64,000 nt of DNA, taken from the NCBI GenBank assembly GCA_963734535.1, contig CAVTHS010000007.1, positions 32,001-96,000 on the forward strand, in the 5' to 3' direction. The stretch is from an uncultured Chloroflexia bacterium (lineage in GTDB: Bacteria > Chloroflexota > Limnocylindria > Limnocylindrales > CSP1-4). Of this stretch, positions 16,963 through 50,848 are shown one piece after another (position 1 is the first letter of the stretch; each line of letters starts with the position of its first letter). The position numbers and the translations under genes are program-made. The notes under the pieces were generated by a model. The model did not search any database and was not told the origin of the DNA. It saw only the letters and a program-made list of their open reading frames with translations.

Positions 16963-17197
16963 AGTAGGTGGACTCTATTCTCCCCACGATCGCGGTCGCG
17001 GTCCATCCCGCAGGTGAGGGGATCGCACCCTGCGCGACAGCCCGGGTCCTGTTGACCCCGGCGATTGGGCGGTACCATGCCCCAGGATGGGGGATAATCC
17101 TCCGAAGGTGGAGAGCCCGGCGGGGTGCTCCCGGGTTACCGGTTTCGGCTCTGGCGTGCGAGAAATCAGGCGCCTGGCAGGGGGAGAGGGTTCGGTT

Positions 17198-18007
17198 ATG
17201 AGCAAGGCCGCGGTGACGGGTCGGATCGCCTCGGCTCCTGATCGGCCGTCCGGCCGACCAGGAGCGCGTGACGGCCGATCCCGGGTCGCGGTCAAGCCGG
17301 GCGACCTGGTCCCCGTGTCTGCCATCCCCGGGGCGACTCGCGTCCTGATCGTCGACGATCACCGGGCGTTCTCCGAGGCGCTCGCCGCCGCGATCGATGG
17401 CAACCTGGACCTCGTCTGTGTCGGCACCCCGACCACGATCGACGAATGCCTTGCCATGGTGGAGACGACCGCGCCGGACGTGGTCCTGCTGGACATCTAC
17501 CTGCCCGACGGCGATGGCATCGAGGCGATCCCGGCGATACGGGCTCGCCATGGCGACGCTCGCATTCTCGTCATGACCGGGTACACCGACGTCGAGGTCA
17601 TGGCGCGGGCGGCCTCGGCGGGAGCGAGCGGCTTCCTGCCAAAGGAGAATTCGATCAGCGCGGTCCTGGCTGCCATTCGGGCGGTTGGGGACGGTCAGAT
17701 GCTCGTCGACGGATCGACCCTCGCTGCGATCCTGGGCCGGGTGGGCCGCGCCGCCCCGGGGACCCGCGCGCTCGACTCCGGCGCCGCCAACCTGACCAGG
17801 CGCGAGCGGGATGTCCTGGACCTCATGGGCCAGGGCCTCGATCCACACGCCGTTGCCGGGAAGCTCGAGATCAGCCTCCACACCTGTCGGGGCTACCAGA
17901 AGAGCATCCTGGCCAAGCTCGACGCGCACAGCCAGCTGGAGGCCGTCGTCGTCGCGGCCCGGCGCGGCCTCATCGCGCGGCTCGGACAAGGACGGGGCCG
18001 CGCCTGA
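17198..18007 (+). CDS. NarL/LuxR-family response regulator
   Basis: VLIVDDH...VLLDIYLPDGDG...FLPK receiver plus LTRRERDVL...LEIS.HT HTH. Divergent from the peptidase-kinase pair. Start could be near 17315. Confidence 0.9.
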   Translation: MSKAAVTGRIASAPDRPSGRPGARDGRSRVAVKPGDLVPVSAIPGATRVLIVDDHRAFSEALAAAIDGNLDLVCVGTPTTIDECLAMVETTAPDVVLLDIYLPDGDGIEAIPAIRARHGDARILVMTGYTDVEVMARAASAGASGFLPKENSISAVLAAIRAVGDGQMLVDGSTLAAILGRVGRAAPGTRALDSGAANLTRRERDVLDLMGQGLDPHAVAGKLEISLHTCRGYQKSILAKLDAHSQLEAVVVAARRGLIARLGQGRGRA

Positions 18008-18826: not shown

Positions 18827-19456
18827 TTGGGTGACGCCGTGGTCGCCCCAGCTGACGCCGCGGACGTCCGGTCGCCGGTCCGCCTGCGACGGCCGTCTGC
18901 CCCCGATCCCGTGCGCGTCGTGGCGTACAGCTGGCTGATGGCCCTCGCGGCCATCGGCCTGCTCAACCTGCTCCACGCGGACCTCCACGAGCATCACGAC
19001 CTCCCCCCGCTCGTTCACTGGCTGCGGGACGCGGCCCTCGCGGTACCCCTCGCCGCGATTGCCGTCCTGGGAGCGGCGTTCCTCGTCCGGGCGCGCACCT
19101 TTCGCCCGCGTGGCGGAGGCGTCTCGTCGATCCCCACGCGTCTCGCCTGGGCGGTCTTCGCCTCCACCTTCTTCGCGATCCTCAGCATCCCCGGGATCCA
19201 GCTCCATGGGCTGTTGTTCGGGGCCGAGGAGGAGTCCGTGGGCTGGCTCGCGGACGCGTTCAAGGACGGAGGCATCACGTTGGCGATCTCCCTCGTCGCG
19301 CTCGTGCCAGCCGCGTTGATCACGGGGCCGCCCTGGCGAGCTGTCCGTGCCGACTTTGGACCTGACCAGGCGCCCGGAGCGACGCTCGCAGCGTCGGCCG
19401 GGTCTTCCGCATTTCTCGCAACCGCGGGATCCACCTACGCCGGAGGCGATCGATGA
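18827..19456 (+). CDS. His-rich hypothetical membrane protein
   Basis: About 4 TM segments with LLHADLHEHHDLPPLVHW and QLHG. Its stop overlaps (ATGA) the next gene. Start uncertain (18827, 18911 or 18938). Confidence 0.65.
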   Translation: MGDAVVAPADAADVRSPVRLRRPSAPDPVRVVAYSWLMALAAIGLLNLLHADLHEHHDLPPLVHWLRDAALAVPLAAIAVLGAAFLVRARTFRPRGGGVSSIPTRLAWAVFASTFFAILSIPGIQLHGLLFGAEEESVGWLADAFKDGGITLAISLVALVPAALITGPPWRAVRADFGPDQAPGATLAASAGSSAFLATAGSTYAGGDR

Positions 19457-19524
19457 GCACCCAGGACAACCGCGCCTCCGTGGCAGGCCAGCAACGTTCC
19501 ACCAGCAGTGAGGAGAGCCAGGTA

Positions 19525-22500
19525 ATGGGTCATTCGCGATTCGGCCGCCCGCGGAGGGCGCTCCGCAGGCTGGGATCCCTGCTCGCGGCCGGCATGCTGG
19601 TCGGCTCGCAGCTCCTGGTGCCGGTGGCCCAGGCCGCCCCGATCAATGTCGCTCCTGCAGCGGCCGCGGTCCCGGCCGCCCCGACCAGCACGATCACGCT
19701 CGCTGTCAAGAGCGCGCGCACCGAGCCCCGGGCGTTCGGCGGGGCCGGCGTGACGGTTGGCACGCCCGTCACCTCGTACAAGTGGATGATCAACGAGGAC
19801 AACACGGGCGACACGACCACGCGCAACGCGAACCCCGGGTCGGCCTGTTCCGCGTGGGTCGACGCGCCCGGCGGGACGCCCAACAGCGCCTACCCGGATT
19901 CCTGCCACTGGACCTCGATCTCCGGCCTGCGGAGCTCCGCCCCGGTCGCGGCCCAGGGCGATGAGACGACCCTCAGCGGCACGATCGGCATCTCCAACCT
20001 GGCGCCCGGCCGCTATCTCATCTCGGTCCTGGCCGATGGCTACAAGCTCGACGGGACCCCGTTCACCGTCCCGATGGAAGCGCCCGGCCTCGTCGAGGTG
20101 CCGCTTCAGCCCGTCCCCCTGCCGACCGCCACGATCAAGGCGCAGATCTTCGCCGACGTGACGTCGACCAACGGACAGTACGACCCGGGCGAGGACGGCC
20201 TGCCCGGGTTCGCCGGCTTCATCACCGACTACATCGGCCAGGTCACGACCGACGTCTTCGGCAACCCGCTGTGCACCAAGTACCAGTTCAACGACCTGAA
20301 CAGCAACGGGGTACAGGACCCGGGCGAGGAAATCACCCTCACCGGTGCCCCCGACTACTCCCCGATCGTCACCCACCTCGGCGGCAAGTGCCTGTCGGGT
20401 GACATCAACATGGACGGCGTCGTCAACGGGACGGACGTCGGGCTCTACAGCGATCCCCAGCTCGATCCCGGCGTGCTGACGATCCCGAACCTCGGGCCCA
20501 ACCGCTACGCACTCTCCGCCGTTCCCCCGACCGGCGCCAGCTGGATCCAGACGACCACGCTCGAGGGCAACCACGACTGGGACGCCTGGGTGATGGAGGG
20601 CTCGACCGGCCTCGACACGGAGTTCGTGGTCGCCGGCGAGCCGTTCCCGGCCGAGATCTTCGGCTACGTGCCGGGCCCCACGATGAACAGGTTCGCGCCC
20701 GGCGGGCAGGGCACCATCAAGGGCGTCGTCGACGCCATGAAGGTCTTCGTCCCGACCACGGGCGGCGCCTGCCTCCCCGGCACCATCTGGGGCGGCCTCT
20801 GCGGCGGGAAGGTCGACAAGCCGATCGACCAGCCGTGGATCGCCCTCAGCGACCTCAACAACGGCGACGCCGCGGTGTGGCTGGGTCGTGGCAACGCCGA
20901 CGGCACGTTCACCATCCCGAACGTCCCCAACGGCAGCTACACGATCACCTACTGGGACGACCCCCAGAACTACATCCTGGACCTGCTCAACGTCAGCATC
21001 GTCAACGGCGAGACCGTCGATATGGGCGTCCTGCCGCTGACGGGCTGGTTCACCAAGTACGACGGCTTTGTCTTCGACGACGCGAACCGCAACGGCGTCC
21101 GCGACGCCGGCGAGCATGGCGTCCCGAACTTCACCCTGACGCTGCGCAAGCGTGAGAACTCGCTGATGGACCGGGGCGCGACCCTGGTCACCACCAACGC
21201 CAACGGCTACTACGTCATGGAGAACGCCTACCCGCTCACGGAGTGGCTGGTCCTCGAGGCGTACGACGACCGCTACTACACGACCGGCGTCACCTACCAG
21301 GCCGACAATCAGCCGGCGCCGACCACGGTCCTTGGCGCGGGCGTCGACGTCAGCGTCCTGCCGATCATCGGCCTCTCCGGCACGCTCGACTGGGGCGTCC
21401 ACGCCTACGACGCGACCGGGACCAACGGCGTCGACCCGCAGAACGGCGGCATCGTCGGCTCCGTCAGCTACGACACCACCCGCAACGAGGTGAATCCGCA
21501 GTACGCGGCCGCGGAGGACTGGCAGCCGGGCGTCTCCGGCCTGACCGTGAACCTCTACGCGCCGGTTGACTGCCCGGTCGACCCGACGACGGGCACGACC
21601 ACCGTGCCGTGCGATGCCAACGGCGACTATGCGCTGGCGGCGGATGGTTCGTATGCCCAGGGCAAGCTCCTGAACACGTATGTCACCGAGACGTGGGACC
21701 GGCCGACCGACTGCATCGCCCGCGGCGTCGATGGCGCGCCCCTCCAGAACCCGGCGGACCAGCAGGTCCTCCCGGTGGGCTCAGGCAAGGGTTGCCTCGA
21801 GGGCCCGCTGATGGGCGTCCAGTTCGGGCCATATCCCACGGACCAGGGCACCCCGGACGCCAACTTCGGCGCCGCGGTCGACGGCAACTACGGCTTCGGC
21901 GACGGCTGCTTCGACGGCGTCCTCGATGCCACCGACCCGTCCGCCCCGACCTGCAAGGACGCGACCACGGGCACCGACGTCCCGTTCACCGCGCTCCCCG
22001 CGGCCGACTACCTCGTCCACGTCGATCTTCCGAGCGTGCACGACAACAACGGCACCCCCGTCTACAAGGTCACCCGGGAAGAGGACATCAACATCGCGAC
22101 CGGCGACAGCTATGTGCCGCAGGTCCCGCCGCCCGCCTGCGTCGGCGCGCTCCACCAGGTGGATGTCGCCGGGGCCGGCACCGACAACTACCCGGCCACG
22201 ACCATTGTCGATCCGTCCGGCCTCGGCGCCGCCACGGTCAGCGTTGCGGCTTCGACTCCCGACCGACAACCCGACCTTCGTCGACATCGGCGGCACGCCC
22301 TATGAGGGCCAGGCCAAGCCGCTGTGCGACACGAAGCTCGTGACGCTCCAGAACGGCAAGTCGGTCGTGCCGATGTTCAACGTCTTCACGGACGTGCCGC
22401 TCCCGAGCCGGTTCTTCGCCCTCAACAACGACGACCTCACCTTCTCCACCGATCCGAAGTCGCTGCTCTACGGCGAGAAGGCCGGCATCCCGTTCAGCCC

Positions 22501-25500
22501 GGTCGGCATCTACGACTTCGCCAACCGCCTGGTTACCACCTCCGAGACCGACTACAACGGCCTCTTCGACGTGCTCCTGCCGTCGACGGACCGGATCAGC
22601 TGCCCGACGCCGTCGGGCGTGTGCGGGAACATCTACCGCTTCGTCGGCAACGACCCGGGCGTCCCGGGCCGCCTGAACCTCAACTACAACCCGCAGTACC
22701 GCACGATCGCGGCCGAGTTCGAGGCCTGGCCGGGCATCATCATCCCGGCCGACACGGCGCCGACGCAGGTCGGCGTGAATGTCCAGGTCCCCGGCTCGCA
22801 GACGTTCACGGCGGTCTCCTGCCCGGTCAATGACCCGGCGTCCGCAGCCACGACACCCGAGCTGTACGCGGTTTCGAAGCCGTACGCCAGCGTGACCGAT
22901 GGCGTCGCCGCGCGATCGATCACGATCGACGGACAGGGCTTCGGCGCAAGCCCCGGCCAGGTCACCCTCGGCGGCGACTCCGCTGGCCACCACCTCGTGG
23001 AGCCCCACCCAGATCGCCCTGACAATTCCCGACCACCGCGACCGGCGGGCCGCAGCAGCTCAAGGTCACCGCGGCCAACGGCCGGAGCACCGTCAACGGG
23101 CTCACGTTCCACGTCATCAAGACCAGCGGACGCGGCGGGCCAGTACAACCCGGCCATCTTCGAGGTGGGCCCCGGCAAGACGTATGCGCCCGCCGAGACC
23201 CTCCCCGCGACGGCCGACCACGCCATCCAGCGTGCGCTTGATGCAGCGGCCCTCTTCATCGGCCAGTCCAACCCCAACGCCAACAGGGGCGCCCTGGTGG
23301 TGGTCTACCCGAACAACCCCAGCGCCAATCCGCGCCAGAACCCGCGCGGCGCGTACTACGAGAACCTGATCATTGCGGGCAAGGTCAAGCTGCAGGGCGT
23401 CGGCCCGGGCAGCCCCACCGGCTCCGTGCGCGGCGCGATCATCGACGGCGGCGCGTTCGCCGGCGACAGCCCGGTGGCGACCGACTGGTACACGAAGATC
23501 ACCACCCTGGCCTGGGCCGGGAACCAGACGATCTATGACGGCGCGGTGATCTCGCTCTTCCTGCCGAGCACCGGACGCAACGCCTTCCCGACGTCGTACA
23601 GCGCCACCACGGCGCCGTCGATCGACGGCTTCGACCTCCGCGGCGGCGATCAGCAGGGCTTCCCCGGCAACATCAACGCCATCGGCGGCGGACCAACGGG
23701 GCTGCCCGGCGGCCTCATCACCCAGGGCGGCGCGGTCTTCGCCAACGCCTACGCCCGCAACCTGCAGATCACCAACAACGTGGTCCAGAACAACGGCGGC
23801 GCCTACGGCACCATCCGCATCGGGACGCCGGACCTGCCGGCCCCCGACACCAACAATCACAACGAGGGCGTCCGGATCCTCAACAACCGGGTCATCGCCA
23901 ACGCCGGGACGAACCTGGCGGGCGGGATCGGCATCTTCGCCGGCGCCGACAACTACGAGGTCGCAGCCAACAATATCTGCGGCAACTTCTCGGCCGAGTA
24001 CGGCGGCGGCCTGTCCGTCTACGGCCTCCAGCGCAACACGGGCACGGCGGTCGTCGCCGGCCGCAACTCCATCCACGACAACCGGATCTACTACAACCAG
24101 TCGTACGACGAGGCGGGCGGAATCATGATCGCCGGCCAGCTGCCGGCCGATCCCTCGATCCTTTCGCCGGGATCCGGCCCAGTCGACATCTACGCCAACC
24201 TGATCCAGTCCAACATGGCCAACGACGACGGCGGCGGGATCCGGTTCCTGATGGCCGGCAACTTCCCGATGAACGTCTACAACAACATGATCGTGAACAA
24301 CGTGTCGACCCACGAAGGCGGCGGGATCGCCATCGACGACGCGCCGAACGTTCGGGTCTACGACAACACGTTCATGAAGAACGTCACGACCGCCACGGCC
24401 GTGACCAGCGACGGCCTGCCGGCTCCCGCCGGGCTGTCCACCGGGCAGAACAGCGCCCTGCTCCAGGCAACGCTGCCGGCCGGCTCCCCGACCTTCAGCA
24501 AGCCGCTCCTGTTCAACAACATCTTCTGGGACAACCGGGCGGGCACGCGTTCCGGCGCCACCGTGACCGGCATCGGGGCGGCTGGCGACGCCACGCCAAT
24601 CAACACCTGGGACATGGGTGTCCCCGGCACCAGCAGCCTGCTCTCGCCCACCTACTCGATCCTCCAGGCGACGACCGGGACCGACGTGACCGGGACGAAC
24701 CTCCCGGCCGGCACGTTCAACAAGGTCGGCGTCGATCCGATCGTCGTCTCCGCCGGGAATACGGCGCTGACGTTCGCCCCGTGGCGGACGAACCCCAACT
24801 TCGTCGGCGCGATCCTCGTCGCGGCCGACCTCCCGCCGAACCTGCAGGGTGACTACCACCTGGCGGCCGGCTCGCCGGCCATCAATGCCGGTGCAGCCTC
24901 CAAGGCCGTGCCCGCCCACCAGCAGCCGCCAGCGACGCTTGCTGCACCCTCGACCGACATCGACGGCCAGGCCCGCCCGTCCGGGGGTGGCTTCGACATC
25001 GGCGCCGACGAGCTCGCGGCGGTCGCCGCCGCCAATGCCAGCGTGGCACCGACGTCACTCGCGTTCGGCAGCGTCACCGTCGGCGCGACCAGCGCGGCCC
25101 AGGCCCTGACCCTGAGCAACACGGGCAGCGCGACGCTGTCCGGCATCACCGTGGCCGTCACGGCTCCCTACTCGCGGCCGGCCGGAGCTCCGGGGGGTAC
25201 CTGCGGTACGACCCTGGCCGCCGGAGGCACCTGCACCATCAACGTGGTGTTCAGCCCGACGACCGCGGTCTCGACCCCCGGGACTGCGACCATCACTGCC
25301 AGCGTGCCGGTCACCGGCTCACCGGTGGCGTTGACGGGTACCGGCGTGGCGGCCCCCTCGCTGCCATCGCTGGGCATCCTCGACAACTTCAACCGCGGGA
25401 ACGCCAACACGCTCGGAGGCAGCTGGTACCAGGGGACGCTTTTCGGTGCGGCCTCGATCCGGGTAAACGCCAACCAGGCGTTCGCCATCCTGCCCGGCCA

Positions 25501-25942
25501 GGCGAACCGAACCACCACGTATGGCGCCAAGCAGGGGGCGGCGTTCACGTTCGCCACCGCGCCCGCGACCGGGGCGAGCCTGTTCCTGAAGGTGGCCAAC
25601 GGGGCCGGGTCGAACGCCAACCCGGCCAGCTACATCCGGGTCCAGTACCAGACCACCGGCGGCGGCCAGGTCCTGGTCCAGACCACCACCAACGGCAACA
25701 ACCTTCTCCCCACGTTCACCACGATCGGAACGCTCTCGTCGGGAGCGTTCGCAACGGGCGACCGACTGACCGCAGTGGCCAACGCCGACGGGTCCGTCGA
25801 CGTCTGGAAGACGACCGCGGCGAACGTGACCACCTACGTCGGCCACACGTCGACGTCGACCTTCACGGGTACGGGCCGGATCGGCATCCAGCTCCCGATG
25901 AACGCCCGGATCGACGACTTCCGCGGAGCGACGGTGCCATGA
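19525..25942 (+). CDS. Giant secreted protein, copy 1 (~2,140 aa): SdrD-B/Cna-like Ig repeats, IPT/TIG, right-handed beta-helix, choice-of-anchor-Q-like motif, ASH-like Ig and C-terminal domain; stitched across indels
   Basis: Signal peptide ending PVAQA; DxNxNG Ca-loop motifs; NN/GGGI beta-helix repeats; DYHL..SPAINAG..DIDGQARP..DIGADE; PTSLAFGSV...LSNTG. One frameshift near 22257 and three compensating ones at about 22975-23135. An in-frame upstream ATG exists at 19453. Confidence 0.82.
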
Positions 25943-25995: not shown

Positions 25996-27357
25996 ATGAG
26001 CGACCACAGTAGGTTGCTGCTCAGCCGGCGTCAGCTGCTGAAGTACGGCGGCGTCACCGCCGTCGCCGCCGGGGTCGCGGGCATCGGCCCGCGGCTGGTG
26101 GAAACCATCCTCAAGCCGGGCCGCGCCCTCGCGGCGGACCAGGAGCCCAACCTCAAGCTCGTCGGGACGGACGGCTGGATCTCCATGCCGCCCGGCCCCG
26201 ACATCAACTCCGCGGCGTACGGCAAGGTCCACCCGGACAGCTACGCACCCCCGAACCGCACCGACTACATATTCGGGTTCGCGAACGGGACCGGCATCTC
26301 CAACGCGGACCTGTACCAGCTCAAGAACAAGGCGCAGCATTCGGCCCCGCTCTTCTGGGCGAAGCAGGGCGACGACTTCCGCGTCCAGCTCACCAACGTC
26401 GGCCTGGCACAGCGCCCGGACCTCTTCGACGCCCACACGCTGCACTGGCACGGCTTCAAGAACGTCATCCCGTTCTTCGACGGCGAGCCAACCGGCTCGG
26501 TGTCGGTCCCGCAAGGCCAGACGTTCACGTACGTCTACAAGTCCCATGACCCCGGCACGTACATGTTCCACTGCCACGTGGAAGACGTGGAGCACGTGCA
26601 CATGGGGATGACAGGCCTCGTCTTCGTGCGGCCGGCCCTGGACGGCAACACGTCCTTCTACGCCAGCGGCAAGTACGCCTACAACGACGGCTCGACCGGC
26701 TTCGACCGCGAGTACGCCATGTTCCTCAGCGAGGTCTGGGCGGACGCCCACTGGGCGGATGCCCACATCCAGCTCCCCGAATGGAGCGACTATCACGCGG
26801 ACTTCAGCCTTCTCAACGGGCGGGCCTATCCGGACACCCTGGAGCCGAACGGCGCGATCTTCTCCGACTTGGGGCTGCCCAACGCGACCTATCCCTTCGA
26901 AGTCGCGCGAGATGCCAGCTACGACCTGACGCCTCCGAGCGGGCCGCGCGGCGCGGACCTGGGCAACCAGCCGATGTCGTCCCTGGTGACCTGCGTGGCG
27001 GGCGAGCGAGTCCTCCTGCGCTTCGCCAACCTCGGCTTCAAGGAAGCCGCGATGACGCTCACCGGCATCAAGCTGCACGTGGTGGGGCGCGACGCGACCC
27101 TCCTCCGCGGCTTCGATTCCACCGATTCGAGCTACGCGACGAACACCGTCGCCCTGGGCGCCGGCGAGAGCTTCGACGCGATCTTCACGGCGCCGGCTCA
27201 TTCCGGCGGATCCGGCCCCGACACGTACGTGCTCTACAACCGGACATACATCCGGGCCGACAACCTCGCCGGCGGCGGCGGCCAGCGCACCGAGGTGCGC
27301 GTCTATCCGTCGGGCGCCCTCCAGCCCCAGAAATACCCCAACGACTGGGGCATCTGA
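25996..27357 (+). CDS. Two-domain multicopper-oxidase-like subunit A1 (Tat-exported; T1 site plus half of the trinuclear ligands)
   Basis: SRRQLLK Tat motif; HTLHWHG and FHCHVEDVEHVHMGM in domain 1; domain 2 motifs are degenerate (AAMTLTG, YVLYNR). Confidence 0.88.
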   Translation: MSDHSRLLLSRRQLLKYGGVTAVAAGVAGIGPRLVETILKPGRALAADQEPNLKLVGTDGWISMPPGPDINSAAYGKVHPDSYAPPNRTDYIFGFANGTGISNADLYQLKNKAQHSAPLFWAKQGDDFRVQLTNVGLAQRPDLFDAHTLHWHGFKNVIPFFDGEPTGSVSVPQGQTFTYVYKSHDPGTYMFHCHVEDVEHVHMGMTGLVFVRPALDGNTSFYASGKYAYNDGSTGFDREYAMFLSEVWADAHWADAHIQLPEWSDYHADFSLLNGRAYPDTLEPNGAIFSDLGLPNATYPFEVARDASYDLTPPSGPRGADLGNQPMSSLVTCVAGERVLLRFANLGFKEAAMTLTGIKLHVVGRDATLLRGFDSTDSSYATNTVALGAGESFDAIFTAPAHSGGSGPDTYVLYNRTYIRADNLAGGGGQRTEVRVYPSGALQPQKYPNDWGI

Positions 27358-27389
27358 TGAGACCAGCAGTGATGAGTGGAGTGACCACG

Positions 27390-28796
27390 ATGCTTCGAAT
27401 CAGGACCCCGCGCGCCCGCCTCTGGCCGGCGCTCGCGGTCTCGTCGGTGCTGGTCTCCAGCGTGTTGCTGTCGTCGGCCGCCGTGCGGCCGACCGCGGCG
27501 GCGACGCAGGACCCGACCAGGAGCGGCGTCGCCTGCACGACCGACACCGGCCCGAACCCGACGTTCAACCTGACAACCCGGGCCGGCTACATCAACCTGC
27601 CGGACGGGACCACTGCCTACATGTGGGGCTTCTCCGAGGGCAGCCGCCCGTTCCAGCACCCGGGGCCCGTGCTCTGCGTCAACGAGGGTGACACCGTCAC
27701 GATCATCCTGAACAACTCGTTCACGCCGACCTCGCCCAAGAGCGCACCGGCCGTCTCGATCGTGTTTCCCGGCCTGGTGGGCGTCACGGCCGACGGCGCG
27801 CCGTCTCAGCCCCAGTTCGACGGCACCGGGGCATTGACCTCCCTTGCGCAGGCGGCGCAGCCCGGTGGCGGCTCGGTCACGTATAGCTTCGTCGCCTCGA
27901 AGCCCGGCACGTTCCTGTACGAGAGCGGCGGCGGGCAGACGACCACCGGCACCCCGAGCTTCTTCTCCAGCCCGCAGGTCCAGGTCCGCATGGGGCTCTT
28001 CGGCGCCCTCGTCGTGCGACCCACCATGGGCGCCGGATACGCCTACGACCTTGCCGACACCCAGTTCAACCCGGCAACGGAGTTCCTGGCCCTGCTCTCC
28101 GAGGTCGACCCGTACCTGAACGCGGCGGTCCTGAAGGGCACCAGGGCCTTCAACATGAACAACTACCACCCGCGCTACTGGCTGATCAACGGCCGCGGGT
28201 TCCCCGACAGCATCGCCGACAACTTCGCGACCTGGCTGCCCAGCCAGCCCTACGGCTCGCTGGCCACGATCCATCCCAACGACAAGTACCTGGCGGACGG
28301 GGTCACCCTCAACCCGAGCCCGATCAACCCCCTGCCCAGCATCACCCGTTACCTGTCCGTGGGCACCGAGGACTACCCGTTCCATCCCCACGGCAACAAC
28401 GGGAAGGTGATCGGACGCGATGGCGCTCCGCTCGCGGGGCCCGCGGGACAGGACATGTCGTTCGACAAGTTCTCCGTGAACATCGGTCCCGGCCAGACCT
28501 GGGACGTGCTCTTCAGCTGGAGGGACAACGAGAACTACTCGCCGTCCAACCCGGTCCCGGCCAGCGAGCCGAACCTCCAGAACCTCACCGTTGGCATGTT
28601 CTACGGCGGCGGCCCCTACCTCGGCGTCCAGGAGCCGATGCCGCCCGGCATCTCCACGCTCAACGAGTGCGGCGAGTTCTACATCATCGCCCACAACCAC
28701 GCGCTCTACCAGATCACGTCATGGGGCGTGAACATGACCGGGCCGATCACCTACACGCGGGTCGATCCGCCCCTGCCGAACAGCTGCCCGTCGTGA
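27390..28796 (+). CDS. Two-domain multicopper-oxidase-like subunit B1 (HxH pairs only in domain 2)
   Basis: PGPVLCVNEGD, PGTFLYES and QVRMGLFG in domain 1 (no ligands); YPFHPHG and AHNH in domain 2. Alternative start at 27357. Confidence 0.85.
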   Translation: MLRIRTPRARLWPALAVSSVLVSSVLLSSAAVRPTAAATQDPTRSGVACTTDTGPNPTFNLTTRAGYINLPDGTTAYMWGFSEGSRPFQHPGPVLCVNEGDTVTIILNNSFTPTSPKSAPAVSIVFPGLVGVTADGAPSQPQFDGTGALTSLAQAAQPGGGSVTYSFVASKPGTFLYESGGGQTTTGTPSFFSSPQVQVRMGLFGALVVRPTMGAGYAYDLADTQFNPATEFLALLSEVDPYLNAAVLKGTRAFNMNNYHPRYWLINGRGFPDSIADNFATWLPSQPYGSLATIHPNDKYLADGVTLNPSPINPLPSITRYLSVGTEDYPFHPHGNNGKVIGRDGAPLAGPAGQDMSFDKFSVNIGPGQTWDVLFSWRDNENYSPSNPVPASEPNLQNLTVGMFYGGGPYLGVQEPMPPGISTLNECGEFYIIAHNHALYQITSWGVNMTGPITYTRVDPPLPNSCPS

Positions 28797-28807
28797 GAGG
28801 TAGGGGA

Positions 28808-31726
28808 ATGACCATGAGATCGGACCGAACCATGAAGCAAACCATTCTTTCCTCGCTGGTCCTGGGGCCGGCGCTGCTCCTCGCGGCGCTGCTGCTCCCC
28901 GGGGCGGCGGCGGCCGCCGGGCCGATCACCTCGACCGCATGCACGGCGGCCGGCACCGCCGTCACCTGCAACCTCTGGGCCGAGACTGGCAGCCTGCCGC
29001 TGCCGCTGCCGAGCACGTCCGTTACCGTCTGGGGCTTCGCCACTGCGTCGGGTGCGAGCCCGACGGTCCCGGGGCCAGTCCTCGTGGCAACCGCGGGTGA
29101 CACCGTCACGGTGAACCTCGTCAACCACCTGAGCCAGCCGACGTCCATCGTGTTCAACGGCCAGGCGATGGTCCCCGACCTGACCGGGGTCGTCTCGGGC
29201 GGATCCACGTCCTACACGTTCGTCGCCAGCGCCCCTGGGACCTACCTGTACGAGGCGGGTCTCATTCCCGGCTCGCAGTACCAGGTGGCGATGGGCATGT
29301 ACGGCGTGCTCGTCGTCCGCCCGGCTGGAGCCCCCTCACAGGCCTATCCGGACGCCTCCACCGCCTTCGACGGCGAGGCGCTCGTCGTCCTCGGCGAGGT
29401 CGACCCGGCCCTGAACAACAGCCCCACGCCGTGGACGGTCGACCTGCGGTACTTCGCCCCGAAGTACTCGCTGATCAACGGGGCCGCATACCCGGGCACG
29501 GCGTCGATCGACGCCTCGTCCGGCACCAGCCTCCTCCTGCGCTACGCCAACGCGGGCATCCAGCACCACTCGATCGGCGTGCTGGGGCTGCGGCAGTCCG
29601 CGCTTGCCGCGGACGGCAGCCCGACGACGTACCCGCGCGACATGGCCGCCGAGACGATTGCCCCAGGGCAGTCGGCCGACGTGCTGGTGACACTCCCCGC
29701 GACGACCGCCGCCTCCACCAAGTACGCGCTCTACGACGCGAGCTTCACCCTGAACAACAGCACCGCGTCCGGGATGGGCGGCATGCTCACATTCATCGAC
29801 GCGACGCCGAATGGAACGGCCACGGGTGACACCGTCGGCCCGATCACGACGGGCGTTGCAGTCAGCACCACGTCCGGCGCCCTGAGCGCCTCGGTCAGCG
29901 ACCTGACGACCGGCGGATCGAGCGTCGCAGGCGCCGAGTACTTCCTCGACGCGATCGGGCCGAGCGGCACCGGCACAGCGATGACGGGGACCTTCCCGTC
30001 CGATCCGGCAGCCGTCTCGGCGTCGCTCACGCTGCCGAGCGGAAGCCACACGATCTACGTCCATGGCCTCGACAACAGTGCCAATGCGAACTGGGGCGCC
30101 TTCAGCTCCACGACCTACACGATCGACAGCGTCGGGCCCACCACCAGCGCCCTGGTCCTGACTCCCAACCCCTCGAACGGAACCGTCGCTGTCGCCCTCA
30201 GCGGCACCGCCAGCGATGCGGCGACCGGCAACAGCAACGTCGTGGCCGCCGAGTACTTCATCGGGACGCCAGGCCCGGACGGTTCCGGCACGCCGATCAC
30301 CCCCAACACGACGGCGGTGATCGTGAGCCTGACAGCGACCATCTCGCCCCCGGTCTCGAGCGGAGTCGTCTCCGTCCACGCCAGGGACGCCGCCGGCTAC
30401 TGGGGCCCCTTCACGACGATCACCCTCACGGTGGAGGGCACCGGCCCGACGACCTCGGCTGTCGTGACCAACCCGCCCGCCGCCAACAATGGGCAGTACG
30501 GCCAGAGCATCGGCAACCCGTCGGTGCGAGTCAGCGCGACGTTCGTCGACGTCGATAGCACCGTTGCCGCGGGCGAGGGCTTCATCGACACCGTCGGCGC
30601 CAATGGAGCGGGCTTCCCGTTCGTCGCCACCGACGGCGTCTTCAATGCCGCGAGCGAGACCGGCTATGCCGACGTCCCGCTCACGACGATCAACCTGCTC
30701 TCCGCGGGCAACCACACGATCTATGTTCACGGCAAGGATGCGGTGGGTAACTGGGGCGCGACGGCCTCCGTCGTCCTCCTGATCGACAAGACCGCGCCCA
30801 CCTTCACGAGCATCACCCTGGCCGCGGTCAACCCGACGCTCGGGGGTGGCATCACCATGACGGTGAATGGCGCCGTCGATCCGTTGGTCTCGACCCTGGC
30901 CAGCGGCGTCGCCGGCGGCGAGTACTGGATCGACAGGGCCGCACCGACGCCGGGCGGCGGGACGCCCTTCACCGGGCTCACCCCCACCATCCCGGCGGGC
31001 TCGCTCACCACGGGCAGCCACACGGTGGGCGTCCGCGTCCGCGACGGCGCAGGCAACTGGAGCGCGGCCACCCACAGCGCCACCGTCTCCGTTGTCGCGG
31101 TATCCATCTTCTCGAACGGCTTCGACACCGGCTTCGGCCCGTGGGGCTGGACCAGCAGGTCCACCAACAGCACCGCGCGCCTCAATGCCACGACGACGGC
31201 CGCCCTGGTCGGCGCTCGCGGCCTGCAGGCCCAGGGCAACAACACCAACTACGTCCAGTACAACTTCGGGACCGCCGCCCAACCGGCGTGGCCGACCTAC
31301 GACGCACGGTTCTACTTCCGGCCGAACGGCAACACCTCGACCGGCAAGGACATCCTGTCCGCCGCCACGTCGAACTCCTTCGGCACGGTCGACTTCCGCG
31401 TCCGCTATCGGCTGAATGGCGCGACGCCGCAGGTGCAGATCCAGGTGGGGACAGCCAACACCAACGCGACCTGGACCAACATCCTCGGCGGCACATCCAG
31501 CAATGTCATCGAGGTGGTCTGGCAGGCCGCGGGCAGCGTCGGGCCGAACCCGGGCACCCTGACCCTCACGGTCAACGGTGTCCTGGCCCAGACGCTGACC
31601 ACCACGAGCACCAGCTCCGTCGGGGCCGTCCGCCTCGGCTCCGTGACCAATACCGGCAATGCCACCCTGATGTACTTCGATGCCTTCGCTTCCAAGCGTT
31701 CGGTGTCGCCGCTCTTCGGTCCGTAA
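28808..31726 (+). CDS. Multicopper-oxidase-like subunit C1 (no canonical ligands) fused to Ig-like repeats and a shared C-terminal domain
   Basis: PGPVLVATAGD, PGTYLYEAG, QVAMGMYG, LING; repeats of AEYF...HTIYVHG.D...NWG; ends YFDAFASKRSVSPLFGP. Confidence 0.85.
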   Translation: MTMRSDRTMKQTILSSLVLGPALLLAALLLPGAAAAAGPITSTACTAAGTAVTCNLWAETGSLPLPLPSTSVTVWGFATASGASPTVPGPVLVATAGDTVTVNLVNHLSQPTSIVFNGQAMVPDLTGVVSGGSTSYTFVASAPGTYLYEAGLIPGSQYQVAMGMYGVLVVRPAGAPSQAYPDASTAFDGEALVVLGEVDPALNNSPTPWTVDLRYFAPKYSLINGAAYPGTASIDASSGTSLLLRYANAGIQHHSIGVLGLRQSALAADGSPTTYPRDMAAETIAPGQSADVLVTLPATTAASTKYALYDASFTLNNSTASGMGGMLTFIDATPNGTATGDTVGPITTGVAVSTTSGALSASVSDLTTGGSSVAGAEYFLDAIGPSGTGTAMTGTFPSDPAAVSASLTLPSGSHTIYVHGLDNSANANWGAFSSTTYTIDSVGPTTSALVLTPNPSNGTVAVALSGTASDAATGNSNVVAAEYFIGTPGPDGSGTPITPNTTAVIVSLTATISPPVSSGVVSVHARDAAGYWGPFTTITLTVEGTGPTTSAVVTNPPAANNGQYGQSIGNPSVRVSATFVDVDSTVAAGEGFIDTVGANGAGFPFVATDGVFNAASETGYADVPLTTINLLSAGNHTIYVHGKDAVGNWGATASVVLLIDKTAPTFTSITLAAVNPTLGGGITMTVNGAVDPLVSTLASGVAGGEYWIDRAAPTPGGGTPFTGLTPTIPAGSLTTGSHTVGVRVRDGAGNWSAATHSATVSVVAVSIFSNGFDTGFGPWGWTSRSTNSTARLNATTTAALVGARGLQAQGNNTNYVQYNFGTAAQPAWPTYDARFYFRPNGNTSTGKDILSAATSNSFGTVDFRVRYRLNGATPQVQIQVGTANTNATWTNILGGTSSNVIEVVWQAAGSVGPNPGTLTLTVNGVLAQTLTTTSTSSVGAVRLGSVTNTGNATLMYFDAFASKRSVSPLFGP

Positions 31727-31730
31727 CCCG

Positions 31731-32312
31731 ATGACCACCATCGGACGTTCCGATGGGGACCGCAGCCTCGCGGCTGCGGTCCCCGAAACCCCGGATCCCG
31801 TGCCGGCTCCGCTGGAGCCGGCCGGGCTCACGCCCGCCCGCCGCCTGCGGCGACGCACCTGGCTTGCGGCAGCCGCCGGCGTCGTCCTCCTCCCCCTGGC
31901 CGTGGCCGCGACCCTCACGTACGCGACCTCGGGCGCCGGCGTCCCGTCGAACGCCGACGTCGCGGCCGCCCGCGTCGTGTCTGCAGCCGAGATGGAGCAG
32001 GACTACGGCATCAAGGTCAATCTCGTGGGTGTGACGGCCGCCGGCGGTCTCGTGGACCTCCGGTTCACGGTCGTCGACCAGGCGAAGGCGCTCCACATTC
32101 TCCACGACTCGACGGTCATGCCCGTGCTCCTTGTTGAGCCGAGCGGCGCCGTCATCCGCGCCCCGACGGGAATGCGCCACAAGGTGACGCTCCTCGACGG
32201 GGGCAACTACTTCATCCTCTATTCGAACCCCGGCGGTGCCGTCCAGGCCGGCACACGCGTGTCGGTCGTCATCGGCGACGTCCGGCTCGAGCCGCTCGAC
32301 GCGCAGAGCTGA
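31731..32312 (+). CDS. Single-TM anchored hypothetical protein D1
   Basis: One TM followed by YGIKVNLVGVTAAGGLVDLRF.V.D..KA...YFILYSNPGG; paralog at 50942. Confidence 0.8.
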   Translation: MTTIGRSDGDRSLAAAVPETPDPVPAPLEPAGLTPARRLRRRTWLAAAAGVVLLPLAVAATLTYATSGAGVPSNADVAAARVVSAAEMEQDYGIKVNLVGVTAAGGLVDLRFTVVDQAKALHILHDSTVMPVLLVEPSGAVIRAPTGMRHKVTLLDGGNYFILYSNPGGAVQAGTRVSVVIGDVRLEPLDAQS

Positions 32313-32325
32313 CAGGAGACCATCG

Positions 32326-35300
32326 ATGCGGCGGGTTATCGCCCTGGCCCTTGCGGCCACTCTCTCGGTCACGACCGTGCCTTTCGTGGCCGCGGGAACG
32401 CTTCCCATGGGTCAGGGCAACAGCCTCGCCGCATTCGTTTCCGATGCCGTGCCCGGCGCGCCGGTGCCGGCGGGGATGCAGACGGTCATCGTCACGCTGC
32501 GGACGAGGGCCGATCTGCGGGCCGTCCGAGGCGGCACTCGCGCCGCCCGGCAGGCAGCAATCATCGCGGCGCTCCGCGCCCACGCGTCGGCATCGCAGAC
32601 TCCGCTCGTCGCCTTCCTGGGTGGCCAGCGGGCGCTCGGCCGGGTCGCCCGGCTGACCTCGTTCTGGCTCTTCAACGGGGTGTCGATCACCGCGACCCCG
32701 GCCGTCATCGCCGCGATCGCGGCCCGGCCCGACGTCGCTAGCGTCACGCCCGACGAGATCGCGATCGTGCCCGCGGCGGTGCAGCCGACACGCCAGCCGG
32801 CATCGGCGTCGATGGGGTCGTCGGCCCCAACCGAGCCGAACATCGCGCTCGTGAACGCCCCGGCCCTGTGGTCGCTCGGCTATACAGGCCAGGGAGTGGT
32901 CGTCGCGAGCCTGGACTCGGGCGTGGACGTCACTCACCCGGACCTCGCGGCACGCTGGCGCGGGGGCTCGGACTCCTGGTTCGACCCGTATGGCCAGCAT
33001 CCCACGACGCCCACGGATCTGACCGGTCACGGGACGGCAACCATGGGAGTCATCGTCGGCGGTGACGCCGGCGGGACCTCCATCGGGATGGCGCCCGGGG
33101 CAACGTGGATCGCCGCCAAGATCTTCAACGACAGCGGCACTGCGACCGCCACGGCGATCCACGCCGCGTTCCAGTGGGTCCTCGACCCGGACGGCAACCC
33201 GGCCACGGCGGACGCGCCACAGGTCGTCAACAACTCGTGGGCCTTTGGCTTCCCGGGCTGCAACCTCGCCTTCCAGCCTGACCTCCAGGCGCTCCGTGCG
33301 GCCGAGATCGTGCCCGTCTTCGCCGCCGGCAACTACGGGCCTGGCGGCTCGACGAGCGTCAGCCCGGCGAACTACCCGGAAGCGCTCGCGGTTGGCGCGA
33401 CGAAAGCCACCGATGTGATCGACGCAACATCCGGCCGCGGCCCATCGGCCTGCGGCGAGGCATCGACCGCGTACCCCGAGGTCGTGGCCCCCGGCGTGGG
33501 CATCCGCACGGCGGACCTGTTCGGCTTGTACCAGTCGGCCACGGGGACGTCCCTTGCAGCCCCGCACGTCGCGGGAGCGTTGGCGCTGCTGCTGAGCGCC
33601 CACCCGGGCGTGAGCGCTGCGTCCCAGGTCTCCGCGCTCACGAGCTCCGCGCTGGACCTTGGGGCTCTCGGCCCGGACAACACCTACGGCTACGGCCGCC
33701 TCGATGCTCTCGGCGCCGACACGATGCTGGGTGGCGGCCCGTCGCCGAGCCCGAGCCCGTCGCAGAGCCCATCGCCGGATCCATCGCCGATCCCGAGCCC
33801 GATCCCGAGTCCATCGCCGGATCCATCGCCGATCCCGAGCCCGATCCCGAGTCCATCGCCGGATCCATCGCCGATCCCGAGCCCGTCGCAGAGCCCATCG
33901 CCGGATCCATCGCCGATCCCGAGCCCGTCCGAGCCCATCGCCGGATCCATCGCCGATCCCGAGCCCGTCCGAGCCCATCGCCGGATCCATCGCCGATCCG
34001 CCCGATCCCGAGTCCATCGCCGGATCCATCGCCGATCCCGAGCCCGATCCCGGCGCTTCCGCCGACCACCGGCGGGCTGGCCCTTGTCCCGAACCCCGCG
34101 AACGGATCGACGGCGGTCACCCTCGTGGGAAGCGTGACCTCGGCGGGGTCCACCGTGAGCGCGGCCGAGTACTTCCTTGACGGGATCGGCGCCGACGGGA
34201 GCGGGTGCACCCTCTCCGGCACGTTTGGCACGTCGGCCGCGAGCGTCGTGGCCACGCTCCCGATAGCGGGGGCGAGTGCCCCGTGCGTCGACCTCGCCAC
34301 GCTCGCCGAGGGCAGCCACACGGTCTCCGTCCACGGCCGGGATGCGTCCGGTGCCTGGGGCGCCACCGCAGCGGCGAGCCTCGTGCTCGACCGGACCGGG
34401 CCGGCGACGAGCGCCGTCACGCTCGCCCCGGGGGCGGCCAACACGCAGGCGGTGGAGATCAGCGCCACGGCCTCCGACACCGCCACGGGCAACAGCCCGG
34501 TCACCGGCGGCGAGTACTTCGTCGACAGCGCCGGCGCAGCCGGGACCGGCACCCCGATGACGGCGGGCGCAGCGCCCTCGACCACCCTCGCGGGCACGAT
34601 CGCCGCGGCCACCGTCGCCGCCCTCACTGCCGGCAACCACACGATCCGGGTCCACGCAAGAGATGCCGCGGGCAACTGGGGCGCGACCGCGACCGCGACG
34701 CTCCTCGTCGACCGTACGGCGCCCACGTTCAGCGCCATCACCCTGGCCCCGGGCTCGATCACGACCGGGACCGCGTCGGTGAGCCTGGCCGCCACCGGCG
34801 CGACCGACCGGCTCACAGGCGGCCTCGCGAGCGGTGTCGCCGGCGGCGAGTGGTGGATCGGGACGACCAACATCACGGCGGGCACCGGCACGGCCTTCAC
34901 CGGCCTCGCCGCGAGCGTGGCCACCGGCGCCCTCACCGCGGGCACGTACACCGTCCGCGCCCGGATCCGCGACGCGGCCGGAAACTGGAGCACCGCCCCG
35001 AGCGGCGGCGTCCGCACGGCGAAGCTGACGGTCACCGCACCGGTCCCCGATGCCATCTTCGCCGACGGCTTCGAGACCGGCACGCTGAGCCCGCTCACGG
35101 GCTGGACGAGCCGCTCGACGACCACGACGAGCCGCCTGGGCGTGACGGCCGGCGCGGCCCTCGCGGGGGCATACGGCCTGCAGGCCCAGGGCAACAACGT
35201 CAACTACGTGCAGAACTCGTTCGGGACGGCCGCCAATCCGGCGAGCCCGACCTACGATGCGCGCTTCCTGTTCAACCCCAACGGCGCCACCTCGTCGGGC

Positions 35301-35648
35301 AAGGACATCCTCGCCGCCGCGACGTCGAGCGGCTTCGGCACCGTGCTGTTCCACGTGCGTTACCGCCTCAATGCCGGCGTCCCGCAGGTCCAGATCGGGG
35401 TGGGCGCCACGGCCAACCCGGCGTGGATCACCCTTGCCGCCGGCAGCAACGCCATCGAGGTGGTCTGGCGGTCGGGGGTGAGCCTCGCGCTCTACGTGAA
35501 CGGGACGCTCGCGGGGAGCCTGGCCGCGGGCACGGGCTCGGTGGGCGCGGTCCGGCTGGGCTCGGTCACCTCGACCGGCAGCGCCACCGCCCTGTATTTC
35601 GACGCCTTCGCCTCCAAGCGCTCCGTGGCGCCGCTCCTGGGCCCGTAG
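32326..35648 (+). CDS. Secreted S8 peptidase 1 with Pro/Ser linker, Ig-like repeats and shared C-terminal domain; frameshifted in the linker
   Basis: SLDSG, GHGT, FAAGN, GTSLAAPHV; AGGAG RBS. The frame switches within 33930-34060 and continues as ORF 34125..35648. Confidence 0.85.
33738..34052 (+). repeat. Low-complexity tandem repeat encoding a PSPSPDPSPIPS linker
   Basis: Recurrent ccatcgccggatccatcgccgatcccgagcccg units. Confidence 0.85.
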
Positions 35649-35763: not shown

Positions 35764-36492
35764 TCAGCCGCCCTCCCGGACGATCCCATGCTCCACGGCG
35801 TAGCGAGTGAGGCCGGCGCTGCCGCGCACGTTCAGCTTGCCGAGGAGGTTCGCGCGATGACGCCGGACCGTGTGCGGGCTGATGCCGAGGATCTCGCCGA
35901 TCTCGACGGCCGAACGCCCGGCGGCGATCAGGCGCAGGATCTCGCGCTCCCGCGCGCTCATGGCGCCGCCGCTCTGGAGCCAGTGCATCGAATCCTCGAC
36001 GATCGCTCCGGCGACGCTGCTGTGAACGTATTGTTCGCCGCGCGTCAGCGCCCGGATCGCCGCGACCAGCTCGTCGGAGTGGGCACCCTTGACCATGTAC
36101 CCGGAGGCGCCTGCGAAGAACGCCTGGCGCACGGTCTCGGCCTCGCGATGCATCGACAGGACCAGGATCCGCATCGCTGGATGGCGCTCGAGGAGGCTCC
36201 CGATCAGCCGGACGCCATCCGAGTCCGGGAGCGAGAGGTCGAGCAGCAGGACGTCCGGCGCCACCGTGTCGAGCATCCGGGATGCACCCGCGGCGTCTGC
36301 CGCCTCGCCGATGACCTCGAGATCGGGCTGGCGGCCGAGCACCATGCGGAGCCCCTCGCGGACGAGGTGGTGGTCCTCGACCAGGGCAACCGTGATCCGT
36401 CGGACCTCGCTGGCCTCGAGCTTGCCGTCGAGATCGGCGCCGCCGCTCGGCGACGCAACGGCGGAGGGCCTCCCGTTCGGGGGGAGCGTCAT
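35764..36492 (-). CDS. NarL-family response regulator
   Basis: LVEDHHLVREGL, LLLDLSLP, YMVK, SAREREIL...ISPHTV..HR.NL..KL. Confidence 0.93.
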   Translation of the reverse strand: MTLPPNGRPSAVASPSGGADLDGKLEASEVRRITVALVEDHHLVREGLRMVLGRQPDLEVIGEAADAAGASRMLDTVAPDVLLLDLSLPDSDGVRLIGSLLERHPAMRILVLSMHREAETVRQAFFAGASGYMVKGAHSDELVAAIRALTRGEQYVHSSVAGAIVEDSMHWLQSGGAMSAREREILRLIAAGRSAVEIGEILGISPHTVRRHRANLLGKLNVRGSAGLTRYAVEHGIVREGG

Positions 36493-37590
36493 GGCCGTGG
36501 CGCCATGTCCGACCGGCGCTCGGCGCGTGCTCGTGGACGACGCAGCTCGAGGCGAATCGTGCTTCCGCGTCCGGGCTGCGACACCATCTCCAGGCTCCCG
36601 TCGATCGATGCCGCCCGCTCCATCATCCCGTGCACCCCGAGTCCCGCACCACCAGTCTCCGCGACATCGAAGCCGATCCCGTCATCTTCGACGGCGAGAA
36701 CGATCCGGTCGCCGTCGGACGACGTCATTCTGATCCAGCGGTGCTCGGCGCGGGAGTGACGGATCGAGTTGCCGAGCGCCTCCTGGACGATCCGCAGCGC
36801 CTCGACCTCGGTCGCCGGCGGCAGCAGGCCCGGGTCGCGAAGGTTCGGATCGATCTCCACGTCGATGGGCACCATGGAATCCGCAACCAGCTCCTCGATC
36901 GTCGCGGCCAGGCCCGTTTCCGACGAGCCGCAGCGGCCTGAGGCGCATGGCGACTTCCCGCGTTTCCTCGAGGGCGAGGTTGGCGGTCCTGCGGGCCCGC
37001 GTGGCGATCTCGAGCGCATCGCCCCGGGCGTCAGGCTGCTCCGTCGAGCCAAGGGACGTCACGAGGGCGTCGAGCGTGTAGGTGAGGGCCGCGAGCGTCT
37101 GCCCGACTCCGTCGTGAAGGTCGAGGGCGATCCGCCGTCGTTCTTCCTGCTGGCCGTTGAGGAGGCGTCGGTTTGATCGCTCGCCGAGCGAGATGGTCCG
37201 GTCCGCCATCACGGCGACCACGACGGCGATGATCATCATGAGCGGCCATTCGGCCAGGTCCAGGTCGGCGATCGGGACGCCGAGCGGGCCGTCCAGGGTG
37301 GCGAGGAACGCGTAGGAGACGACGACGCAGAAGGCGATCCCGAGCCGAATGACCGCGCTCCGGAACCCGAACGCAAATGCCTCGATCACCAGGACGATCC
37401 ACAGGCAGTGGAGCAGCAGGTCGGGTTCGGCGAGCTGGACGTAGGTCGCGACCCCGAAGGCCAGCGCCGGCGAGGTCGAGGACGACCTGGAGCGGCCGCA
37501 ACCTGCACGAACGGCCACGGACGACGAGGCTGCCGAGGCCACCGCTCGCGGTGCGGCCGCCTTGTCGGTGATCAACGCATCGACCTCTGT
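36489..37590 (-). CDS. NarX/UhpB-type (HisKA_3) membrane sensor histidine kinase; frameshifted
   Basis: TM region, QEERRRIALDLHDGVGQTL H-box, then in a second frame RIVQEALGNSIRHS, EDDGIGF, GLGVHGMMERA. Indel near 36920; start approximate. Confidence 0.82.
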
Positions 37591-37779
37591 CTCACGGCGC
37601 CCGAGTATGGGAGCCCGATTCGGCTTCTGCAATGCCCCAGATGGCGCGTCCCAACGGTCGCCGCGCACGGCCCCGCTCCGGCCCGGGACACGATCCGCGC
37701 CGCCGCCGGCCGATGCCGCGCCACTCCGCGGATCACGCACCGACTGCTCCGGCGGACCCCCGGACTGCCCGTGACAAGC

Positions 37780-37818: not shown

Positions 37819-38159
37819 TTCTCAACCCTCCGGTAGAGGATGGCGGAGCCCCCGGTGCGCGGACATGCTGCGCCGACTGGCCGGAGTGGGCGCATAGGCG
37901 TTCGCCCAGGAAGCCAGCGGAGGTGGGTCAATGCGCATTCACGGTCCTGGAAGGTCCGGACGAGCCGAAGACGGGTCGAACCCCACGTCGCGGCCCCCGG
38001 CCTTGCTCACCGGTTTCGTCACCGCGTCGGCCCGGTCTTCCGCCTCTTCCGCGACGACTGGAATCCGCGCATCCCGGAGGCGACCGATGAGCACCCAGGA
38101 CAACCGCGCCTCCGCTGCAGGCAGTCAACGTTCCACGAGGAAAGAGGAGGGACCAGGGA

Positions 38160-46404: not shown

Positions 46405-46417
46405 TCCATGAAAGGAG

Positions 46418-47779: not shown

Positions 47780-47788
47780 GAGACGACG

Positions 47789-50829: not shown

Positions 50830-50848
50830 TCCCAAGCACCTCGCACGC

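Follow-up and report, generated by a model that had tools for sequence, protein, structure and literature searches.

Complementary copper ligands in adjacent cupredoxin paralogues suggest a multicopper oxidase divided between genes in an uncultured Chloroflexia bacterium

Can the trinuclear copper cluster of a multicopper oxidase be assembled from ligands that are supplied by different genes? This question is raised by three adjacent genes, designated A, B and C herein, at positions 25996 to 31726 of a 64,000-nucleotide window (the whole stretch of DNA analysed, positions 32,001 to 96,000 of contig CAVTHS010000007.1, assembly GCA_963734535.1) from an uncultured Chloroflexia bacterium. Multicopper oxidases, including laccases, ceruloplasmin, CueO and manganese oxidases, are among the best-studied metalloenzymes, and to our knowledge the cluster ligands of those described always come from one polypeptide or from identical chains. 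An original prediction made from the DNA alone had proposed that A, B and C encode a multicopper oxidase split over three paralogous genes. We show here that the ligands of a single cluster are divided between A and B, that this division is conserved among homologues together with the order of the genes, and that members of the system are joined in predicted fusion proteins. A, B and C probably work only as one mixed complex.

All three genes are encoded on the forward strand. Gene A (25996-27357) encodes a two-domain oxidase subunit of 453 aa with a twin-arginine translocation (TAT) signal, copper ligands in domain 1 and none in domain 2. Gene B (27357-28796) encodes a two-domain subunit of 479 aa with a Sec-type signal, cluster histidines in domain 2 and none in domain 1. 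Gene C (28808-31726) encodes a protein of 972 aa comprising a ligand-free two-domain part at residues ~40-340, Ig-like repeats, and a C-terminal domain of ~215 aa. The ATG of B and the TGA of A overlap by one base, C starts 11 nt past the stop codon of B, and the other gaps between genes of the operon span 4-53 nt; the G+C content around A, B and C is 68-75%. The two cupredoxin domains that the original prediction had assigned to each protein are borne out by Pfam, which finds the Cu-oxidase-family cupredoxin domains that define the multicopper oxidase superfamily in all three: Cu-oxidase_3 (8.4e-11), Cu-oxidase_2 (2.4e-10) and Cu-oxidase (3.9e-5) in A; Cu-oxidase_3 (9.5e-6) and, below the cut-off, Cu-oxidase_2 (1.6e-3) in B; and Cu-oxidase_3 (6.9e-14) and, just under the cut-off, Cu-oxidase (7.4e-4) in C. 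B and C are 32% identical to one another, and A is ~24% identical to either. None of the curated NCBIfam models scores near its cut-off against A, B or C. In a sequence search of solved structures, the best relatives of A are the type C two-domain oxidases 3g5w (2.3e-15), 3gdc and 2zwn (the weakest at 5.2e-11), those of C are copper nitrite reductases and two-domain oxidases (2e-12 and weaker), and those of B are nitrite reductases only (~5e-3).

To locate the copper ligands, we aligned 30 sequences each of A, B and C in a single three-family alignment. The motifs quoted in the original prediction were all reproduced in homologous columns. The first motif of domain 1 reads HTLHWHG in A, VSIVFPG in B and TSIVFNG in C, and the second reads FHCH..VEDVEHVHMGM, LYESG..QVRMGL and LYEAG..QVAMGM, respectively. 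The first motif of domain 2 reads AAMTLTG in A, YPFHPHG in B and HSIGVLG in C, and the second reads YVLYNR, IIAHNHAL and YALYDAS. Thus domain 1 of A contains a type-1 site (H147, C193, H200 and M205) and the cluster histidines H150, H152, H192 and H194, and domain 2 of B contains the cluster histidines H343, H345, H446 and H448. The four canonical multicopper oxidase motifs are given as HXHG, HXH, HXXHXH and HCHXXXHXXXXM in PMC7036934. HXXHXH and HCH..H....M are found in A, two HXH pairs are found in B, and none of the four is found in C; no one polypeptide holds them all, and the set is complete only when A and B are combined. The proposal that domain 1 of A and domain 2 of B together provide eight histidines and one type-1 site therefore agrees with both the motif columns and the conservation described below.

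Homotrimers of the type C oxidases (the Nitrosomonas europaea blue copper oxidase 3G5W; 3GDC; 2ZWN) resemble A in that each chain has two cupredoxin domains, the first of which holds the type-1 site and half of the cluster ligands; their cluster lies at the domain 1/domain 2 interface between chains, according to PMC11761707. In these homotrimers, however, one chain carries all four motifs and there are three clusters, whereas here the motifs are split over two gene products, the third product has none, and a ring would contain no more than one cluster. Of the features that characterize type C, a type-1 site placed in the first of two domains is seen in A alone, and cluster histidines in both domains of one chain are present in neither A nor B.

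The presence of copper nitrite reductases among the best solved relatives of B and C could instead be taken to mean that the system acts as a non-oxidase copper enzyme, nitrite-reductase-like or otherwise, with a mononuclear site at the A/B interface. We find this scarcely probable, given that the HCH and HxH of A and the two HxH pairs of B form the eight-histidine trinuclear pattern, as presented in PMC7036934, and that the NirK model TIGR02376 scores 29.3 against A, relative to a cut-off of 296.3. The scores of the same model against B and C are 21.5 and 36.3, so that none of the three proteins qualifies as NirK.

How widely is this division of ligands conserved? Searching one genome per species, we identified 80 loci with relatives of A (53-80% identity) in Chloroflexota, Actinomycetota, Myxococcota, Pseudomonadota and Acidobacteriota. 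Carriers include Cryobacterium, Intrasporangium, Terrabacter, Phycicoccus, Anaeromyxobacteraceae, Burkholderiales, Chromatiaceae and Methylobacter tundripaludum SV96; M. tundripaludum SV96, Intrasporangium flavum and species of Cryobacterium, Terrabacter and Phycicoccus are in culture. From these loci we cut out 81 homologues of A, 73 of B and 70 of C. Each of the eight A ligands (H147, H150, H152, H192, C193, H194, H200 and M205) is present in 81/81 sequences. In the B family, H343 is present in 72/73 sequences and H345, H446 and H448 are each present in 73/73. Among the 70 sequences of C there is no conserved His or Cys, the best being H254 in 56. The claim that the complementary ligands do not reflect random decay thus holds across phyla. 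Complementary ligands that occupy homologous columns and are kept in the A and B families support a ring in which A and B share a cluster.

This conservation also bears on whether the system is an oxidase at all. A could act in electron transfer as a type-1 copper protein, with B and C as its decayed structural paralogues, in an operon that builds a surface fibre or adhesin; such an arrangement would suit the absence of ligands from C and the resemblance of the giant protein U, encoded upstream of A and described below, to pilin and adhesin stalks. It would leave eight cluster histidines functionless, yet across phyla these occur in 72-81 of 73-81 sequences, and both of the old paralogous clusters retain them. 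Histidines of the cluster (H150 and H152 of A; H343, H345, H446 and H448 of B) also fall in the predicted A/B interface, and a copper transporter is often encoded in the gene cluster. We therefore regard a non-enzymatic fibre as quite improbable.

Outside of the ligand motifs, H252, H257 and C333 of A are present in 81/81 sequences, H79 in 76/81 and H115 in 78/81; these residues could form an additional metal or substrate site. B has four conserved cysteines, C60 (71/73), C107, C438 and C477 (73/73 each), which probably form two disulfides. Two disulfides in B would fit folding after Sec export.

We next consider whether A and B could bring their ligands together. The complex of A (residues 50-453) and B (residues 55-479) was predicted with an alignment of our own of 55 rows for each protein. 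The three models scored 0.86, 0.88 and 0.86 (median 0.86) and the best of three controls scored 0.00; 58 of 80 solved complexes reach this score mark, as do 2 of 110 mismatched pairs, and the mark is a rough guide here since our own alignments were used. The runs share at least 96% of their contacts, with a partner pLDDT of at least 90. The predicted interface of B involves domain 2 only (residues 234, 271-273 and 338-460, including H343, H345, H446 and H448), and that of A comprises residues 146, 150, 152-162 and 196-202, which cover H150, H152 and the stretch beside the HCH triad, as well as part of domain 2. In the model, then, domain 1 of A packs against domain 2 of B.

The gene order of these loci is equally well conserved. 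Counting those loci whose contig leaves enough DNA, B follows A in 78/78, C follows B in 70/71, and U precedes A in 67/67; the single exception for C (L011) has a 34%-identical match. We also drew an even sample of 300 Chloroflexota genomes and searched it for A at E <= 1e-60 and for B at E <= 1e-40. A was found in 7 genomes and B in 10, and in the three additional genomes with B, A lies directly beside B as split matches, such that the two genes are adjacent in 10/10. The co-occurrence of A and B that the original prediction had set as a check is thus found in every locus and genome counted. The system occurs in ~3% of the 300 Chloroflexota genomes; amongst Actinomycetota, 5/401 genomes had matches in a stricter first look with a related query. 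At 50% identity and E <= 1e-30, the B family forms 182 clusters among 1.84 billion representatives.

Predicted fusion proteins tie the members of the operon to one another. Longer relatives of B fall into seven 90% clusters (P0126-P0132; 866-1177 aa) that are predicted B-C fusions. In six of these, all but P0130, a B-like module of 42-47% identity (HPxHPHG, HSH) is followed by a C-like module of 39-46% identity, and full-length members of P0129-P0131 (873-1170 aa) are found on several contigs. Three further candidates (P0133, P0155 and P0156) resemble frame artefacts or read-through calls and were set aside. Longer relatives of A include many proteins of ~2,000-2,250 aa with 31-40% identity, most of them with precomputed Beta_helix or SdrD_B domains. 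P0164 and P0170 each consist of a U-like body with an A-like module at its end; of the ligands, this module has those of domain 1 only, and it lacks a TAT signal. The predicted fusions therefore tie B to C and U to A. One of the P0164/P0170 pair (~2,200 aa) has a source name in the archaeal Candidatus Bathyarchaeia, and besides these two about two dozen long proteins in the same listing match A.

The role of C is best considered in light of both its cupredoxin pair and its stalk. The Ig-like stalk that the original prediction described is recovered by Pfam as Big_13 and Y_Y_Y, although all of these matches are below the cut-off. The C-terminal 627 aa of C have no match in the sequence search of solved structures, ESM Atlas gives only weak leads for the tail (polysaccharide-lyase-like, and a sialidase-like carbohydrate-binding module), and the tail domain is present in 21/80 loci. 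In seven loci (L012, L014, L017, L020, L022, L024 and L026), the cupredoxin pair of C is preceded by an additional N-terminal Ig-like domain, leaving ~1 kb between B and the C module.

One alternative is that A and B share a cluster without forming a 1:1:1 ring, the complex consisting of A and B with a second A or B, or being larger, and that C acts separately, as a stalk or adaptor that anchors the enzyme to the surface. Anchoring would suit the length of its Ig-like stalk and the tail that it has in common with the subtilase of the operon, the tail is found in only the 21 loci noted above, and our complex model covers A and B only. The cupredoxin pair of C, on the other hand, is kept directly after B in 70/71 loci, predicted B-C fusion proteins exist, B and C are the closest pair of the three, and the two-domain oxidases known so far are all trimers, according to PMC13151041. 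We consider this alternative unlikely on balance; the synteny and the predicted B-C fusions suggest that C takes a place in the ring.

The window also contains a second, diverged copy of the cluster. The genes U'-A'-B'-C' lie on the forward strand at 38087-50829 and are ~30-60% identical to those of the first copy: U' at 38087-44781, A' at ~44973-46401 (53% identical to A), B' at ~46356-47751 and C' at ~47955-50829. They are followed on the same strand by three intact genes, D' (50942-51430), a CopC-CopD copper-transport fusion (51443-53371) and a subtilase with a TIG domain (53368-55671), the CopC-CopD gene lying between D' and the subtilase. The original prediction had stated that the second copy shows the same pattern. 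The motifs it quoted, HTIHWHG, HCHNEDVEHVQMGM, HPFHPHG and HSH, are indeed present; it did not remark, however, that relative to the intact congener counterpart the second copy here has at least 18 frame changes (5 in A', 1 in B', 3 in C' and 9 in U'). In that congener (G004), A', B' and C' each have one uninterrupted frame and divide the ligands in the same way, and no HxH occurs in C'.

These frame changes are either assembly errors or recent decay. Eight sequencing runs hold 5-7% of the sampled words, and we assembled contigs from four of them over the stretch 44800-51000. The short-read contigs, mostly 90-95% alike, have one base fewer at eight places in this stretch, three of which (45726, 45954 and 47292) are beside frame changes of A' or B'. 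Given this level of likeness, the contigs come from relatives and are uninformative on this strain, its habitat or expression. The second paralogous cluster is nevertheless old and putatively functional in relatives, and an old cluster with the same split strengthens the view that the split is selected.

Taken together, these data favour the reading that the paralogous two-domain cupredoxin proteins A, B and C form an extracytoplasmic, mixed six-domain ring acting as a single catalytic unit, which we hold to be reasonably likely. That the cluster is common to A and B is the well-supported part of this reading; what we infer from it is that C is included, that the subunits stand at 1:1:1, that the ring is an oxidase and that it is attached to U. 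The ligand count permits exactly one trinuclear cluster, and the model sets domain 1 of A against domain 2 of B. In the mechanism we propose, the type-1 copper of A domain 1 (His147, Cys193, His200 and Met205) would take electrons from the substrate, and the His192-Cys193-His194 triad would hand them to the trinuclear copper cluster, where O2 would be reduced to water. The cluster would lie at the A/B interface, held by four histidines of A domain 1 (150, 152, 192 and 194) and four of B domain 2 (343, 345, 446 and 448). Metal-free C would fill the third position and contribute its Ig-like stalk. The ring would be part of a surface system that comprises the CnaB-like/beta-helix stalk protein U, A, B, C, a membrane-anchored protein D, often CopCD, and a subtilase. 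As substrate we would guess at either metal ions or phenolic groups at the cell surface.

Several observations weigh against such a ring. With respect to the interface that the original prediction proposed to check, the scores (0.86 versus 0.00) and the presence of H150, H152, H343, H345, H446 and H448 in the interface are as expected, but H192 and H194 of A are not among the listed contacts of the model. As two-domain oxidase homotrimers have been solved, the A+B score may mirror likeness to those structures, and the prediction covers the A+B pair only. With respect to the fusions, some members of the fused clusters are proteins of 353 aa that consist of the C part only. At the DNA level, B and C occur in one stop-free frame in none of 56 testable metagenome loci (24 of the 80 loci were too short, and four flagged cases were cross-matches), and none of the five genomes with a match among 400 Actinomycetota genomes plus one further genome (G031) shows a continuous B-C. 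The export signals differ as well: a TAT-like motif is found in 73/81 A, 12/73 B and 3/70 C sequences, the signals of B and C being Sec-type. If the enzyme is a heteromer, with A exported by TAT and B and C by Sec, the cluster could form only after export, unlike in the two-domain oxidase homotrimers that are exported by TAT. This mixture of pathways is a mechanistic puzzle rather than a refutation. Finally, the frame changes in U and the subtilase of the first copy, described below, and the 18 or more of the second make the state of the genes in vivo uncertain. The computational tests that were run all came out in favour of the original prediction; its observation is confirmed and its interpretation supported.

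A, B and C are also part of a larger conserved operon in the order U, A, B, C, D, subtilase. The original prediction treated A, B and C as a unit and overlooked these neighbours. U (19453-25942, forward strand) is a giant, secreted, stalk-like protein of ~2,150 aa that is represented here by two overlapping frames, 19453-22305 and 21926-25942. The first copy has a +1 frame change near 22257, with an apparent extra base after a CCC run. Relatives such as those at L025 and L001 have U in a single frame, and since they read through it in this way the two frames are probably one gene. U matches SdrD_B, SpaA and CarboxypepD_reg in Pfam and choice-of-anchor D and Q in NCBIfam, and its fused relatives have a beta-helix domain. 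The predicted structure of residues 70-500 (pLDDT 82) matches stalk domains of pilins (CnaB/SpaA) and of SdrD; from residue 936 onward, U has no match in the sequence search of solved structures.

Downstream of C, D (31731-32312, forward strand) is a small protein in which a single membrane helix accompanies a beta-sandwich domain, and it is found in 70/80 loci. Its model (pLDDT 92.8) matches generic beta-sandwiches only: Foldseek returned no match at E <= 0.001, and the best VIA-align Z is 5.9, with a PCuAC domain at Z 4.3 amid many unrelated rows. D was considered as a copper chaperone and rejected, as the family is without a conserved His, Met or Cys.

The subtilase of the S8 family (Pfam Peptidase_S8, 8.6e-43) is encoded at 32326-34137 on the forward strand and continues in another frame at 34062-35648; matches are found in 66/80 loci. 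Past a Pro/Ser-rich linker (33900-34140), the first open reading frame turns to Arg-rich nonsense. In the second frame, Ig-like repeats are followed by a C-like tail, with 51% identity to C over 34062-35645. Thus 32326-35648 is probably one gene of ~1,100 aa with at least one frame change in the repetitive Pro/Ser-rich linker; the second-cluster subtilase of a congener is a single open frame of 1015 aa. The likeness of their tails suggests a probable targeting module common to C and the subtilase.

A CopC-CopD gene is found within the cluster in 18/80 loci, mostly in Actinomycetota and mostly between D and the subtilase. Its presence there and in the second copy links the system to copper, in support of the mixed copper-binding ring.

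A LuxR-type response regulator gene is present in 22/80 loci, mostly upstream of U. Within the window, regulators flank both clusters: a LuxR-type response regulator is encoded at 17087-18007 on the forward strand, and a hybrid PAS/GAF histidine kinase (11364-15071), a further subtilase (15103-16962) and a regulator/HisKA_3 kinase pair (35764-36492 and 36682-37740) are encoded on the reverse strand.

How does this system relate to oxidases that are already known? Ceruloplasmin and MnxG have six cupredoxin domains and a single trinuclear cluster. These six-domain oxidases are single chains, whereas here the six domains come from three paralogous genes, which have separate stop codons and signal peptides, and no chain has six. 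The description of the system as a gene-split equivalent of a six-domain oxidase is therefore apt as an analogy and does not extend to membership in that group. According to PMC5622069, the Mnx complex is a multi-subunit oxidase of MnxG with an accessory MnxE3F3 hexamer, in which MnxE and MnxF are small, have no known homologues and no paralogy to the oxidase, and supply no cluster ligands. Our locus is not of the Mnx type, having no six-domain chain and partners that are oxidase paralogues. Nmar_1354 of Nitrosopumilus maritimus (PDB 9CCK) is described as an alpha-alpha-alpha' heterotrimer in PMC11761707 and is similarly a two-domain oxidase trimer with three non-identical chains. As described there, however, its chains come from one gene, alpha' merely lacks an extra cupredoxin domain, and every chain has all of the ligands, whereas here the chains come from different genes. 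Our search of the full-text literature, whose coverage left out most subscription journals and supplements, found no oxidase with cluster ligands divided between gene products.

It is possible, albeit speculative, that gene duplication turned a three-cluster homotrimer into an obligate A-B-C heterotrimer with only one cluster, paralleling the step to six-domain enzymes such as ceruloplasmin but without fusion. On this tentative view the ring would sit on a giant stalk, be matured by its own protease, and oxidise Mn, Fe, Cu or a surface polymer extracellularly in many soil and freshwater bacteria.

If the mixed ring is borne out, it would represent a new quaternary design for the multicopper oxidase family, in which two different gene products are needed for the cluster, plus a ligand-free paralogue. 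It would also offer an experimentally tractable intermediate for the origin of single-cluster six-domain oxidases from trimers, and it would raise the question of how copper is loaded after export when one subunit is exported by TAT and two by Sec. As the system is present in at least five phyla, including cultured strains, a direct test is possible. The association of A, B and C with a protease and a giant surface protein suggests that soils and sediments harbour an extracellular oxidation system that has gone unrecognised.

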